DNA of 33,371 bases from Fibrobacteria bacterium (GCA_037447435.1 JBBIGR010000049.1:1-33371); one strand, 5' to 3'. Counted from the first letter of the stretch, positions 8,439-33,282 are shown. Notes: generated from the sequence alone by a model not told the origin. Numbers and translations: made by a program.

Positions 8439-10757
8439 ATGAAAAAAGAAATAGTGCTCAATGCTGTAGCAATAGGCCTTCTTGTTTCGTTTACAGTGCT
8501 GGCTCAAAGTAGTCCCAATTATGTACGTACTACTACTTATTTGGATGAAAGTACACCTATCGTTTCAACTACGTTTTCTGATGGTCTTGGTAAGAAAATC
8601 CAATCACAGGTAATAATAAACGGCGCACCATTGAGCATAGATTTGATTTCGGGTAATTATTTTGACCCAGCTGGACGGCCATGGAGGACCGTGAAAGCTT
8701 TTTCGACGACTGAAGCGTTTCATGATTATTTACCCGACGGTGGGGTGGGGAACAGCCTCATTGATAAAGCAAATCTGTATTTCAACAATGATAGCGCATT
8801 TTCTGAAACGCAGTATTATGATGATCCTTTGGAAAGAGTTAAAGCTGTAGGTCAACCGGGAAAAGATTTTAATTTGGCAAACCCTGCAAAACATTTTCAA
8901 AAATCATGGTACTTTGGTGTAAAGTTGAGCCCGAATAGCTCTGAAGATCCAAACGCACTCCTTGACACGTCCTGCTTTATCAAGACTAGTGAGTTGATCA
9001 AATCTACAGTCGAAGCTACCCTTGACGCACCGGGTTTCAACATGACAAATGCGGTTTATTTTCTCACCGTTAATCGAGACCCGAACGGAAAATTTTCACA
9101 GGAATTGAAGGACATTTTTGGCAATACCTTCAAAACATGGTCTACACCGGATATCACTTCTGCCAGTCAACAAATCAAGGCCTCGTATATATTTGACATT
9201 GTTGGAAAATTGAATAAGGAAACGCAGCCGGTTCCGGACTTAACGGATCCTGGTAACGTGCTGCTGCCTTCTCAATACACCTATAATACCCTTGGTCAAC
9301 TATCCAGTAAAATTACTCCAGATGCCGGAACTACTTCATTTCGCTATGATGATGCGGGTCGGATACTGTTTTCGCAAAACCAAAAACAAAAGGATTTTTC
9401 CACAACATCCTTATGCTCATCTTTGGGTTCCAATGGACTTGAAGTTTTCACCATATACTCATATGACAACCTTGGGCGAACATTGACAATAGGCGAAAAC
9501 AATAACGATTCACTTAAGTTTCTATCCGGCGTTATTCCACAGCCAGTTCCAGCCGGACTCATAAGAGTTGAAAATCATTACGATAGTGCCAATGGATTAT
9601 TGCCACTTAAGAATGGCGTTTCCTATGGCACAATAATCGACTCGATCATTCCTTTGCTAAGCAACCTTAGGGGGCGTCTTGTTTTTACGGTTGCCTACAA
9701 TGACACTGCATGCCCTTGCAGTGGTGGAATAACATATGATCCAACGACGAAGGTGGTCGATATTTTCTCTTACGATGATGAAGGAAGGATAAATAAAAAG
9801 TTCAAAATTATTCCTGGTTTGCCGGTTCAGGCGTTCACCTTTACCTATAATCTTCAAGGAAAAGTGGTATCGCAAAAGTACTTTGCGGCCTTTGCCGGCA
9901 CTTTAGGGGGCGCAACATCTGTGACCACGTTCTCATATGATTCCAACGGTCGTCTTGCATCCATAAATAAAGGGAGTGAGTTCTCTGTACGTCCCTATGT
10001 CACTTATTCATATAGCCAGACGAACCTGCTTACTAAAAGGACTTTTGCAAGATCAGGTGTAGACCAGAATTTTGATTTGAATTACAGCTATAACATTCGA
10101 GATTGGGTTAACAAGATTTTTAATATCTCTGATTCAACAATTCCTCAATACTCGGAAAAACTTGCCTACAATGACGCAAGCAGCCTTATTAACTCCTCGC
10201 TTGTTTCAAGCCTTCAATACAATGGGAATATTGCTGCATCGGAATTTACTTATCCGACAACTGCGCCCCTTAAACCGCTCTCCCTGGCTTACACGTACGA
10301 TGACGTGAACAGGTTAACCAATGTTGTTACGGGCGCAACAGGAACGGTTGATTCGAATCTAAAACAGGATAAATTCAAGGAAGCGTTTTTATATGATAAT
10401 GTTGGAAGGTTGACCAAGAAAGTCGAGGGTGCTTCAGGAACTTCATCCACAGATCCAAAGTATTATTACTATCCGCAAAGTAGCAAATTGAGAGGGATTA
10501 AAGGTAATGAATGGATCGAAGACAGTTATGTATACGATGGAAATGGAAATATGATCCTGGACAAGAACAAGAAAATGTACATAACATATGACTGGCGGGA
10601 CATGCCGGAGTATTTCAAGTTTTTGAACCAAAATCCTGAACAGAGAAGCGATACGCTTGATTTTAGCAAATGCAAGATGATTTCTGAAGTTCGAATGCAG
10701 TACGATGCAAGCGGAAACAGGGTGCTCAAAACCACTCAGGCTCCCCTTGCGCCTTGA
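8439..10757 (+). CDS. Secreted RHS/YD-repeat shell protein (DUF6443-like N-terminus) lacking the RHS-associated core
   Basis: Signal peptide MKKEIVLNAVAIGLLVSFTVLA-Q; NYVRTTTY...FSDGLGKKIQ; YD repeats YNTLGQL, YDDAGRI, YDNLGRT, YDDEGRI, YNIRDWV, YNGNI, YDDVNRL, YDGNGNM; ends YDASGNRVLKTTQAPLAP* with no DHLGS or DPxG. Confidence 0.9.
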   Translation: MKKEIVLNAVAIGLLVSFTVLAQSSPNYVRTTTYLDESTPIVSTTFSDGLGKKIQSQVIINGAPLSIDLISGNYFDPAGRPWRTVKAFSTTEAFHDYLPDGGVGNSLIDKANLYFNNDSAFSETQYYDDPLERVKAVGQPGKDFNLANPAKHFQKSWYFGVKLSPNSSEDPNALLDTSCFIKTSELIKSTVEATLDAPGFNMTNAVYFLTVNRDPNGKFSQELKDIFGNTFKTWSTPDITSASQQIKASYIFDIVGKLNKETQPVPDLTDPGNVLLPSQYTYNTLGQLSSKITPDAGTTSFRYDDAGRILFSQNQKQKDFSTTSLCSSLGSNGLEVFTIYSYDNLGRTLTIGENNNDSLKFLSGVIPQPVPAGLIRVENHYDSANGLLPLKNGVSYGTIIDSIIPLLSNLRGRLVFTVAYNDTACPCSGGITYDPTTKVVDIFSYDDEGRINKKFKIIPGLPVQAFTFTYNLQGKVVSQKYFAAFAGTLGGATSVTTFSYDSNGRLASINKGSEFSVRPYVTYSYSQTNLLTKRTFARSGVDQNFDLNYSYNIRDWVNKIFNISDSTIPQYSEKLAYNDASSLINSSLVSSLQYNGNIAASEFTYPTTAPLKPLSLAYTYDDVNRLTNVVTGATGTVDSNLKQDKFKEAFLYDNVGRLTKKVEGASGTSSTDPKYYYYPQSSKLRGIKGNEWIEDSYVYDGNGNMILDKNKKMYITYDWRDMPEYFKFLNQNPEQRSDTLDFSKCKMISEVRMQYDASGNRVLKTTQAPLAP

Positions 10758-10806
10758 TAAGTTAAAGAATCATTCAAGAGCTCCCTCGGGAGCCGGGAAG
10801 AATTCT

Positions 10807-31080: not shown

Positions 31081-31101
31081 ATTTTTATGAAAGGTATTCT
31101 C

Positions 31102-33282
31102 ATGAAACGCATTCTTTTCTTATCGTTGTTAATTTTATGCATTGCATTTATTACATTTGCCCAAACGCCTTCAAATGTCATTAAACCTGCTTCAGACACG
31201 CTTAAATCAAAGGCCAAACAAATTTCAAAGCAAGATGCCGCAAACCAGAAGACTGCCAAGAAAGCAATTGCAGACAGTACTGCAAAGAAAGCCGCGAATG
31301 CAAAAAATCCAAAGGATAGCCTTGCCAATGTTAATGCTAAAACGGATTCGGTTACTTCGCTAAAAGCAATCAAGATTATTGATACTATATCACCCCAGCT
31401 TACGATCAATAAACCTGAATTTATTCCAGTGGCCGATTCGATTAAAATTCCGGTTCTGGATTTTAAAAATACCGACGTTCGGGATATTCTGCGGGCAATC
31501 GGTATGCAATATAATGTAAACATCTTTCTTGAAACGGATGTTGTCGGGACGCTTTCTTTGTATTTGACAAATATTAGTGTTAAAAATGCAATCGATTTTG
31601 TCGTTAAGCGCGGTAATTTCTCCTATATGTACGAAAAGGGGATTGTTAAGGTTTTTAAACCTACTGCATTGCCTCCTCCTGCAGCGCCAAAGCCATCCGT
31701 TGTTTTTCATTTGCATGATGGACTTCTAGACATCGATGCCAAAGGTGCGAATGCAAAAGATTTAGCCCAGATGTTTGTGGATTCTGCAAATATCAATGTC
31801 GTTCCAGATGCAAAAGTCGACAAGCAAATCAACGTCCATGTAAAAGGTTTAAAACCCGACAAAGCCCTCAAGGTTGTTTTCGAAACCAACGGCTTCGATG
31901 TTACGGTTTCGGATGGGCTGTATTATGTCTCACCGCAAAATTGGGGAGCAACCGGCGCAGATGGTAAGCCAACAGGTACACAAGACCAGCGCAGACTTTC
32001 CGTCACAATCAGTAAAACCGGGAGGGTAAGCCTGGAAGTAAATAACGCTGCATTAGACCAGCTGGTTCGTTCCATTGCAATGCAAAGCGGAATCAATATT
32101 ATCATTTATGAGAGTATTTCAGGAACAGTAACGGCAAAATTCGATTCTGTCGAGCTGGACGATGTTTTACGGTTTTTATTGCAGAACACCAAATACACAT
32201 TCTGGAAAGACAAATCCATTTACTTCTTAGGCTCTCGTGAAATGAGCCAGCAGAAAACTACCGTTATCATCACGCTTAAAAACATAATGGCCGATGATGA
32301 TTTGGCAAACAAACTCCTTCCCCCGAATATTACGAAAGATGCGGTGGTACGAATAGACAAGGAACATAATTCCGTTATTGTCATAGGCTCTTTTGATATT
32401 GTTGCGCAGGCCCAGGAGTTTTTAGCAAAGGTAGACCAGCCTGTTCCGCAGGTATTAATAGAAGCATTGGTAGTGGATTTCAATTTAAGCAAAACGCGTC
32501 AATACGGTTTACAGCTTTTTGTCGCGGATACTGTTCCTAAAATGCAGGATAACTATTTCCCTGCAGTATCAACACGGGTAGGTCAACCTACGCTTCAACA
32601 CGCACTCAATGAGGTCTTGCGTTATACGCATATTAATGACGTCGTAAGCCTGCCAGCAAATTTCATGGGAATGATAAATGCGTTGGAACAGGCCGATATA
32701 GCCAAAGTACATTCAACGCCGCAAATAGCCACTCTTAACGGCAATACGGCATCAATAACCATTGGTGAGACCCAATATTTTAAATTGACATCCGATGTTG
32801 TTAATCCAAGCAGCGGTGCGAGTGGAACGGTCATATCGACCTCGGAACATTTTGAAAAATACCAATTCGATAATAAGCTCGAAGTCACACCGTGGGTCAT
32901 GGCAGACAGATACGTGACGGTAAAAATTAAGCCTGAATTTAATATTCCAAGAACAAAAGACAACTCAGGAATACCTCCTACGGCAGATAAACGGGATTTG
33001 GAATCAATCGTCAGGCTTAGAGATGGCCAGACTATTGTGTTAGGCGGGCAACGAAATACTTCCGAAACAGAGTCAAAAAGCGGAGTGCCGTTTTTATCAA
33101 GTATTCCGGTTTTAGGATGGTTCTTTTCAAATACGACAAAAGTTAAAAATGAAACGCAAATGATGATTTTCGTGACACCGCATGTGTATTACAAGGATGA
33201 GGGAACAGTAAATCCACAGGACTTTTTCAAGTCTAAACTTGAAGATTTCAATATTGACAAAGATAAAACTAAAAAGAAATAA
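31102..33282 (+). CDS. gspD: Secretin (GspD/PilQ family)
   Basis: Signal peptide MKRILFLSLLILCIAFITFA-Q; three STN/N0-like units; QVLIEALVVD, STPQIATLNG, DGQTIVLGG, GVPFLSSIPVLGWFF, IFVTPHV. Confidence 0.93.
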   Translation: MKRILFLSLLILCIAFITFAQTPSNVIKPASDTLKSKAKQISKQDAANQKTAKKAIADSTAKKAANAKNPKDSLANVNAKTDSVTSLKAIKIIDTISPQLTINKPEFIPVADSIKIPVLDFKNTDVRDILRAIGMQYNVNIFLETDVVGTLSLYLTNISVKNAIDFVVKRGNFSYMYEKGIVKVFKPTALPPPAAPKPSVVFHLHDGLLDIDAKGANAKDLAQMFVDSANINVVPDAKVDKQINVHVKGLKPDKALKVVFETNGFDVTVSDGLYYVSPQNWGATGADGKPTGTQDQRRLSVTISKTGRVSLEVNNAALDQLVRSIAMQSGINIIIYESISGTVTAKFDSVELDDVLRFLLQNTKYTFWKDKSIYFLGSREMSQQKTTVIITLKNIMADDDLANKLLPPNITKDAVVRIDKEHNSVIVIGSFDIVAQAQEFLAKVDQPVPQVLIEALVVDFNLSKTRQYGLQLFVADTVPKMQDNYFPAVSTRVGQPTLQHALNEVLRYTHINDVVSLPANFMGMINALEQADIAKVHSTPQIATLNGNTASITIGETQYFKLTSDVVNPSSGASGTVISTSEHFEKYQFDNKLEVTPWVMADRYVTVKIKPEFNIPRTKDNSGIPPTADKRDLESIVRLRDGQTIVLGGQRNTSETESKSGVPFLSSIPVLGWFFSNTTKVKNETQMMIFVTPHVYYKDEGTVNPQDFFKSKLEDFNIDKDKTKKK

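Follow-up and report, generated by a model that had tools for sequence, protein, structure and literature searches.

Toxin complex (Tc, or ABC) toxins are not known to carry signal peptides on their chains and are generally assembled in the cytoplasm. Their BC components, exemplified by TcdB2–TccC3 and YenB–YenC2, combine a B chain made of an SpvB-like plate and a YD-type shell with a C chain that has the TcC-like shell curvature, a rearrangement hotspot (RHS) core with a DPxG motif, and a variable cargo. One such toxin, Yen-Tc, is released by lysis through a type X secretion system (T10SS), according to the consulted part of that study (PMC10847048). RHS/BC capsules that have neither TcA nor a type VI secretion system (T6SS) raise the question of how cargo is moved over a target membrane. 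Here we describe a locus of this kind on a contig of 33,371 nucleotides from a Fibrobacteria bacterium (GCA_037447435.1 JBBIGR010000049.1:1-33371). This whole stretch, hereafter the window, is contig C49 of the host genome, G000 (5.05 Mb, 96 contigs), and its RHS genes with their partners are referred to as the cassette. The locus shares with the Tc/ABC BC components the plate and shell of B, the TcC-like shell curvature, the RHS core with its motif, and the variable cargo. It differs from them in that two genes encode C, whose halves are separated by a large lectin-type arm, all chains have signal-peptide-like starts, no TcA was found in the locus, and the B chain contains a predicted membrane barrel.

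Three earlier descriptions are partial precedents: the TcdB/TcaC class (2012), a Flavobacterium island (2018), and gspG-linked Rhs proteins (2025). The class of polymorphic toxins named for a "TcdB/TcaC-like export pathway," as presented in the consulted part of Zhang et al. 2012 (PMC3482391), is marked by a signal peptide plus an SpvB domain and covers both bacteroidetes and fibrobacteres; the present system is like it in having a signal peptide followed by an SpvB-type domain, and unlike it in that the integrin-like beta-propeller that defines the class was not found here. The searched portion of that paper has no instance of the terms "OmpH," "secretin," or "type II secretion." In Flavobacterium psychrophilum CC-ST10, a 35-kb island carries type II secretion (T2S) genes in two divergent loci, which enclose two proteins that have domains of the Yersinia ABC toxin, along with a putative adhesin and a gene for OmpH/Skp; the chaperone role of Skp is stated there (Duchaud et al. 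2018, PMC5808330). Compared by description, this island is likely a two-chain form of the present system. Its account, in the part consulted, is a short remark on one lineage and, unlike the present analysis, does not treat a split C chain, a barrel, linkage across phyla, or a mechanism. For gspG-linked Rhs proteins of Xanthomonas and Ralstonia, export by a type II secretion system (T2SS) was predicted from the linkage and is unconfirmed (bioRxiv 10.1101/2025.05.08.652813); they differ from the present system in that gspG linkage, and no B partner, Skp, or barrel is described in the consulted part of the preprint. The Bacteroidetes "T2SS," represented by CHU_3191-3202 of Cytophaga hutchinsonii, has largely unknown substrates according to the part consulted of Wang et al. 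2017 (PMC5553014), and the corresponding part of Denise et al. 2019 (PMC6668835) groups it with type IVa pili (T4aP) and suggests that it is an independent secretion system. The machine encoded beside the cassette resembles it as there described, with GspD and GspE, PilN/O/P-like platform genes, and divergent pseudopilins. Finally, T6SS Rhs effectors (RhsA, Tse5, and Tre23) share with the present system a YD shell, an RHS core, a self-cleaved cargo, and a downstream immunity gene, and differ in that here the locus holds no PAAR or VgrG, the chains have signal peptides, and the modeled shell fits TcC better. The main text of a survey of Tc toxins (PMC7861908) has no mention of "Bacteroidetes" or "signal peptide." In a literature search from which most subscription journals and supplements fell outside, we found no paper describing a divided shell, a barrel within the B chain, or the linkage across phyla, and the term "DUF6443" appeared in no paper in that search.

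The locus works like a BC-type RHS capsule and is neither a Tc toxin as defined, given its signal peptides and the absence of TcA from the locus, nor a T6SS effector. We propose, tentatively and with slightly less than even confidence, that its three signal-peptide-bearing chains form a BC capsule and leave the cell via a secretin machine, that the barrel of the B chain replaces TcA, and that the cargo enters a probably bacterial target. The proposal builds on gene content, the split, the motifs, their variability, and the linkage as observed, and on modeled folds, from which we infer assembly, route, and target. The system is likely an antibacterial toxin that does without TcA and brings a pore of its own. 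A wider formulation is possible, though we hold it more doubtfully: that this is a self-sufficient, TcA-free injection system of the Fibrobacterota–Chlorobiota–Bacteroidota (FCB) group, with a Sec-exported capsule, a Skp-chaperoned translocation barrel in B, and exchangeable lectin arms that aim it, which would be the dedicated substrate of a "T2SS" derived from type IV pili and present in both Bacteroidota and Fibrobacterota. If the proposal is true, a barrel built into the B chain would be a concrete, testable answer to the question of how cargo crosses the target membrane, and the Bacteroidetes "T2SS" would gain a candidate substrate in the cassette, as that system is described in the consulted parts of PMC6668835 and PMC5553014. 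Carriers include cultured environmental strains, which makes the idea testable by ordinary knockouts.

A TcC-Like Chain Divided between Two Genes

Together, the stand-alone DUF6443/RHS shell gene and the separate gene for arm, core, and cargo make up a single TcC-like chain, each encoding one half. The shell protein ends directly behind its last shell strand and has neither core nor cargo, and the same terminal motif recurs in a 21-sequence shell alignment, one sequence of which was excised from a fusion. The next gene supplies what is missing: at aa 1980-2267, after DUF2341 and laminin-G modules, it holds the last strands, the TIGR03696 RHS core, and the DPDG motif. Among the full-length shell matches in the order of the host, window excluded, 19/23 are stand-alone frames (717-878 aa) and the other four are fused or long, one of these being cut by a contig end; at locus L034 the shell and core halves are naturally fused. 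The split RHS gene that had been put forward for comparison across genomes is thus conserved, with a shared end motif. Origin of the split by a frameshift or pseudogene formation was considered and rejected: the break is found repeatedly at one motif, and the second gene brings a hydrophobic start of its own as well as arms that differ. The shell is present in 81/296 Fibrobacterota genomes, and only one RHS core was found in the host genome.

The shell model (pLDDT, the predicted local distance difference test score, 78) is TcC-like, in agreement with its initial annotation as an RHS shell, with a query-normalized TM-score (TMq) of 0.59 to TcdB2–TccC3 and SGS1 and of ~0.2 to most T6SS Rhs entries. 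The arms vary by locus and include modules similar to carbohydrate-binding module (CBM) family 3, PA14/fn3, LRR, and laminin-G modules, and also cadherin-like ones; those of the window have paralogues on many host contigs, the best (42.6%) on C33. Basic-hydrophobic, signal-peptide-like starts are present on all three shell proteins of the window, as had been claimed. By a simple hydropathy test, used here in place of SignalP, a hydrophobic N-terminal segment was seen in 18/20 shells, 17/18 core chains, and 19/21 B chains (54/59 chains pooled), vs 3/22 GspE controls. At two other loci the genes are interrupted, the shell gene at L147:5118-7303 by an internal stop and the arm/core gene at L126:10260-15247 by a division into two frames; these copies are probably decaying or assembly errors.

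A B Chain with a Predicted Outer-Membrane Barrel

From its signal-peptide-like start, the B chain runs through an SpvB-like plate and a YD-type shell to a CBM-like insert near the end and a C-terminal Ig-like domain. Of 7993 scored candidates, 1056 are homologous to it at E <= 1e-10, many of these being named Bacteroidota; it has no match to an SpvB or TcB family in Pfam or NCBIfam. A structure model built from 54 sequences covers aa 23-1160 only (pLDDT 73.7). It aligns with YenB (Z 12.1, root mean square deviation [rmsd] 4.4, 311 residues), TcdB2 (Z 11.9, rmsd 4.5, 315 residues), and the SpvB N-terminal domain (Z 11.8, rmsd 4.4, 251 residues), and with Rhs shells at Z up to 13.9. A search of PDB sequences with the B alignment returned only a CBM (E 3e-7) and a weak RhsA match (E 0.042). 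The TcB/SpvB-like label given in the initial annotation therefore stands on the fold of the model, at Z ~12 to YenB and TcdB2, and finds no counterpart among the sequence families. A beta-propeller gate was not seen in B: there was no FG-GAP match and no propeller among the listed fold matches of the model, which covers aa 23-1160 with parts at pLDDT <50. A shorter, weaker-matching B subtype of 1100-1400 aa is common in Bacteroidota and lies <5 kb from a secretin gene at G062:C5:8872, G068:C18:27941, and G089:C17:119220.

Residues 98-249 of the model align with outer-membrane barrels at Z 9.9-11.4, and the segment is predicted to form an outer-membrane barrel of the 12-strand type, a feature that was not part of the initial annotation. 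The closest match is KdgM (Z 11.4, rmsd 2.7, 129 residues), together with BrkA (Z 10.8), FapF (10.6), AIDA-I (10.4), and a designed 12-stranded barrel (9.9). In the 54 aligned rows, one face of the barrel strands is 64% large hydrophobic and 4% charged and the other is 76% Gly/Ser/Thr/Asn; for comparison, 19 body strands have a second face with 27% hydrophobic, 31% small, and 24% charged residues. In 54/54 rows the insert measures 160-257 aa, and it is carried by two long strands that run out of the body of B and back into it. A shared barrel fold alone, here seen in a model, says nothing on function. Outer-membrane barrel proteins generally have a C-terminal barrel with a β-signal for the barrel assembly machinery (BAM); that of the B chain is internal, within a protein of 2108 aa.

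Skp normally escorts a cell's own outer-membrane barrels. In Fibrobacterota, a Skp gene adjoins 6/6 barrel-type B genes and 0/15 B genes that have no barrel segment, a contrast that amounts to few independent events (lineages), barrel type and Skp being co-inherited; the pair of Skp and lipoprotein genes accompanies B genes of the barrel-bearing type only. Both Skp and lipoprotein genes lie <=5 kb upstream of B in 58/67 loci with enough upstream DNA. The predicted barrel best explains the Skp gene and the missing TcA. In 4/15 of the nonbarrel B chains (L033:12115-19974, L028:495-5417, L137:2-4207, and L029:1910-7609), one or two long hydrophobic segments occupy the barrel position and there is no adjacent Skp; by sequence, this slot in B suggests an exchangeable membrane-engaging module. 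Two tandem Skp-like genes precede the B gene in the Fibrobacter loci L061:8474-9513 and L116:8481-9501, and a gene of the LolA3 family (NF053579, E 2e-43 for the representative) lies between the B and RHS genes at L115:13982-14758 and in 11 more loci, all of one Bacteroidota subtype.

The same features could be read to mean that the barrel anchors the capsule in the outer membrane of the producer itself, inserted by BAM after escort by Skp, in the manner of an autotransporter. The result would be a weapon that is tethered and acts on contact, or else a chamber in the periplasm from which cargo is discharged outward, while export through the secretin would be limited to the arm/core chain or to accessory adhesins. 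Autotransporter β-domains and porins are indeed the best matches of the barrel, own outer-membrane barrels are the usual clients of Skp, no whole capsule would have to be pushed through a secretin, and genomes that have no secretin retain Skp and the lipoprotein. Set against this, the barrel is internal and both of its ends lead back to the capsule body, such that insertion into the own membrane would be expected to keep the capsule, lectin arm included, within the cell, and the strong linkage to a secretin (below) would have no explanation. We regard anchoring in the producer as somewhat unlikely and keep to the reading in which the barrel enters the target.

Linkage of the Cassette to a gspE/gspD Machine

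The initial annotation had placed T2SS genes beside the RHS locus, and this association holds in many other genomes, with linkage across Fibrobacterota and Bacteroidota; the lack of linkage elsewhere that would have refuted it was therefore not borne out. By score, and with PilN and PilO matches, the machine is T2SS-like and not a canonical T2SS: the window GspE scores 564.8 bits against TIGR02533 (cut-off 630) and 551.6 against TIGR02538 (cut-off 676), and the secretin, which has the N0/N domains, scores 164 of 351 bits against GspD and 183 of 284 against PilQ. Relatives have gspE-gspD followed by PilN/GspL-, PilO/GspM-, and PilP/GspC-like genes (the PilP matches being weak) and N-methyl minor pilins. 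Of the downstream genes that the initial annotation proposed to look for, those like L and M are present in relatives, and an open reading frame (ORF) starts in that position in the window, at 33292; gspF and gspG are not in the window, where the contig ends. Both gspF and gspG stand beside the cassette in L034 and several Bacteroidota loci. The single PilC/GspF gene of the host adjoins pilT on contig C5 and may be shared by several machines. A second gspE-gspD operon of the host, at C14:31970-40514, has platform and minor pilin genes, with no gspF or gspG seen.

In a tree whose secretin rows were chosen from cassette loci, the window secretin forms a clade at 100/100 with six secretins of the order that are linked to a cassette, and both the host PilQ and the second secretin fall outside it; the GspE tree is mostly unresolved. 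The possibility that gspE/D is the ordinary type IV pilus of the host was rejected on this separate grouping and on the presence of pilMNOPQ, pilB, and pilT/pilC on other contigs. It had also been envisaged that gspE/D might belong to a pilus or competence system; they are not the T4aP of the host, and the machine may be derived from a type IV pilus.

The window secretin clade (>=53% identity) is present in 18/80 genomes of the order, 15 with the shell and 3 without; the other genomes have the shell only (9) or neither (53), giving an odds ratio of 29 that is overstated, as these kin are not independent. Its 19 loci comprise 7 beside cassette genes, 2 that are not, and 10 at a contig edge. Outside the order, secretin and cassette lie within 26 kb of each other in 10/22 Fibrobacterota genomes that have both. 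T2SS-like genes occur in the flank of 16/80 loci taken for the B gene. A whole-genome secretin search covered 50 of those 80 loci, short contigs and duplicates being left out; 32/50 of these cassette genomes have a secretin, and it lies <=21 kb from the B gene in 20/32 vs 0.7 expected. In a random draw of Bacteroidota, where the B gene was found in 31/401 genomes, the two were linked within 15 kb in 7/13 genomes having both (6/12 without the centre genome). The secretin link is not obligatory for the cassette. In 11 of the 18 secretin-free loci (L055, L058, L062, L076, L078, L090, L095, L100, L101, L102, and L119), an unnamed barrel-like gene, recognized by eye and belonging to several unrelated families, stands beside the cassette. 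Some of these genes precede a protein with what by eye is a sorting-domain-like C terminus, and those that were scanned had no Pfam or NCBIfam name; they are a possible alternative exit module.

These data bear on another explanation, that gspE/gspD form a machine derived from type IV pili that serves adhesion or other substrates on the same island, while the capsule leaves otherwise, by a barrel protein, helpers of the type IX secretion system (T9SS), vesicles, or lysis. The position of the window GspE below both the GspE and the PilB cut-offs is as this would predict, as are the PilN and PilO matches (and weak PilP matches) of downstream genes in relatives, the clustering of the Bacteroidetes "T2SS" with T4aP in the consulted part of PMC6668835, the impaired cellulose use and adhesion of Cytophaga mutants in that of PMC5553014, and the secretin-free loci with their barrel-like genes. 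A serine recombinase is also present at the left end of the window, and shell and window-type secretin have matches in 0/5 genomes of the same genus, which fits an island. The linkage, however, is retained in two phyla and under several arrangements of the genes, some with divergent or split operons around the cassette, which is hard to account for without a shared function; moreover, the T4aP genes of the host form a set of their own, there is a second secretin operon besides, inspection of linked loci showed no pilT, and the three chains have no match to the T9SS sorting domain. An unrelated machine is in our judgment unlikely, and export of the chains by the linked secretin system remains the reading that we prefer.

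A Variable Cargo and Its Neighboring Gene

When 40 C termini were cut behind the core motif, they fell into 35 groups. Short orphan core+cargo ORFs lie near several loci, and a small variable gene follows the cargo in the loci of relatives. A variable C terminus past a conserved cleavage site, an adjacent small gene, and orphan modules are together the pattern of polymorphic toxins. The cargo of the window (17% Gly, 44% hydrophobic) had no toxin-family match in the family scans. Among 1.84 billion representatives it matched two clear homologues, each placed directly behind an RHS core; a third match, to an FG-GAP protein (E 8e-4), is likely due to chance. Searches of a protein atlas with the cargo and with the barrel segment gave weak, uninformative matches. 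The start of the immunity candidate overlaps the cargo stop, and no homologue of it was found among 24 candidates. Composition and position suggest a membrane-acting cargo toxin paired with a membrane immunity protein, and the cargo itself likely acts on membranes.

A capsule of this construction might instead be a large surface adhesin or glycan-binding structure and not a toxin, as teneurins and mosquito SGS1 reuse the YD shell. SGS1 is the top Foldseek match of the shell model, the arms are of laminin-G, CBM3-like, PA14, LRR, and cadherin-like types, the B chain has its CBM-like insert, and the cargo matches no toxin family. Such a structure would not account for a hypervariable cargo after a fixed cleavage motif, for orphan core+cargo modules, or for the small variable gene after the cargo, and we consider it improbable; the toxin reading is the one followed below.

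Proposed Mechanism and Points against It

In the proposed mechanism, Sec would carry the B, shell, and arm+core chains across the inner membrane, and Skp and the lipoprotein would hold the barrel segment unfolded in the periplasm. The gspE/gspD system, to judge from gene linkage, would export the chains, more likely separate or partly assembled than as a closed capsule; the three chains likely close into one capsule. The lectin-like arm would then bind a glycan on the target surface, the barrel would enter the outer membrane of the target from its outer side, and the cargo, once self-cleaved, would thread through the barrel and attack a membrane, while the two-helix immunity protein would protect kin.

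Several observations weigh against this mechanism. A closed BC capsule measures ~11 x 13 nm and a secretin lumen ~6-8 nm; the capsule is thus wider than the lumen, and export in pieces is more plausible than export of the finished capsule. A secretin match is missing in 18/50 selected and 18/31 randomly drawn B-bearing genomes, and 5/5 tested secretin-free genomes also have no GspE above cut-off. There was no genome-level association in the random draw (12/30 vs 188/370, p 0.34; PilQ-type secretins blur this comparison). Two loci of the window secretin clade, G035:C83 and G022:C263, have no cassette nearby. The window contains neither gspF nor gspG, and tblastn did not find the rest of the operon in the assembly. 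On the side of the B chain, Foldseek with its model gave nothing at E <= 0.001, the weak rows being RHS shells, TcdB2, porins, and secretins; model residues 189-231 of the barrel have pLDDT <50; and the co-inheritance of barrel type and Skp noted above limits the weight of their association. Several of the 15 B genes without a barrel segment are secretin-linked, and the barrel is therefore not required by the family. Finally, the host has a T6SS sheath gene, and it carries SprA and, among the matches listed, 120 to the T9SS sorting domain (TIGR04183).

T6SS delivery was nevertheless rejected for this locus, in which signal peptides are present and PAAR is not. The initial annotation had noted that TcA, VgrG, and PAAR are missing from the window; none was found in its 16 longest ORFs, which the Pfam and NCBIfam scans covered, and for T6SS parts this absence is confined to the window, the genome having TssC, VgrG, and PAAR. 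These lie away from the window, the TssC (sheath) gene at C1:28066 and a stand-alone VgrG gene and a PAAR gene cluster at C12:41104-43275 and C12:68537-69025. The TcA families PF18276 and PF03538 had no match in G000 (99.6% complete), in a search in which the control genomes were silent too. No TIGR04183 match is listed on the window contig and none arose in the scans of window proteins; a search of the host for GldN gave no match, with the control also silent. In genome G524, a weak match to VRP1, the TcA N-terminal family (E 0.0013), lies at C3:125775-126335 in a 3557-aa frame, ~135 kb from the cassette of that genome.

Gene Order and Surroundings of the Locus

The closest named relatives of the window proteins carry the labels Chitinivibrionales, Chitinispirillum, and Fibrobacter, on which basis the host is assigned to Fibrobacterota. 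The co-oriented, tightly packed run that had been described is borne out: all ten named genes were found on the + strand, with gaps of -4 to 79 bp until gspE (Table 1). Two items had escaped its gene list, the DUF559 gene between gspE and gspD and the ORF at the contig end.

Table 1. Features of the window, in nucleotide positions of contig C49
Feature	Position	Strand	Remarks
RHS shell chain, 772 aa	8439..10757	+	Pfam DUF6443 and RHS_repeat
Arm+core+cargo chain	10807..18159	+	
Arm of second chain	10807..16743	+	signal-peptide-like start; four DUF2341 and laminin-G (lectin-like) modules; further beta domains
Last shell strands and RHS-associated core	16744..17607	+	TIGR03696 above cut-off; DPDG self-cleavage motif; one domain inserted within core
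Variable C-terminal cargo, 183 aa	17608..18159	+	Gly-rich, hydrophobic; no known family
Putative immunity protein, 151 aa	18156..18611	+	two hydrophobic segments; role inferred from position
Skp/OmpH-family chaperone	18612..19172	+	PF03938, E 8e-26; N-terminal hydrophobic segment
Conserved lipoprotein, no known family	19197..19826	+	VTGC, which we take to be lipobox-like
TcB/SpvB-like B chain, 2108 aa	19829..26155	+	structure model of aa 23-1160
Predicted transmembrane-type beta-barrel in B chain, aa ~120-271	20186..20641	+	model and dyad pattern
Secreted-type protein, no assigned family	26201..26779	+	
Secreted-type beta-propeller repeat protein	26859..28844	+	paralogues elsewhere in host
GspE/PilB-family assembly ATPase	28897..30438	+	PF00437, E 6e-131
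DUF559 gene	30627..31022	+	GC-rich palindromes on both sides
Secretin, GspD-like	31087..33282	+	STN/N0, Secretin_N, and Secretin domains
ORF cut by contig end	33292..33371	+	slot of GspL/PilN-like gene in relatives

The content of the slot between the B gene and gspE differs from locus to locus. The DUF559 gene starts after a 188-bp gap behind gspE and is likely an insertion; none was present at the same place in the loci of relatives inspected. A promoter and terminator scan of 18000-33371 was uninformative (55 promoter-like sites vs 41 expected; 11 terminator-like vs 12.7). A contig from a public sequencing run spans the shell/core junction (8000-11340) with zero differing letters, this run being possibly the source of the window and not independent of it; the contigs of the run gave no extension past the contig end. 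The left 6.8 kb of the window, on the minus strand (3-6794), hold a serine recombinase with resolvase, recombinase, and zinc-ribbon matches, a tandem AAA ATPase with a sub-cut-off match to the anti-phage ATPase IteA, and three unassigned ORFs, and have the look of an island edge. A short GC-rich palindrome occurs in 4 copies in the 5-Mb genome, 3 of them in the window, one in the shell/arm gap (10780) and two around the DUF559 gene (30586 and 31057).

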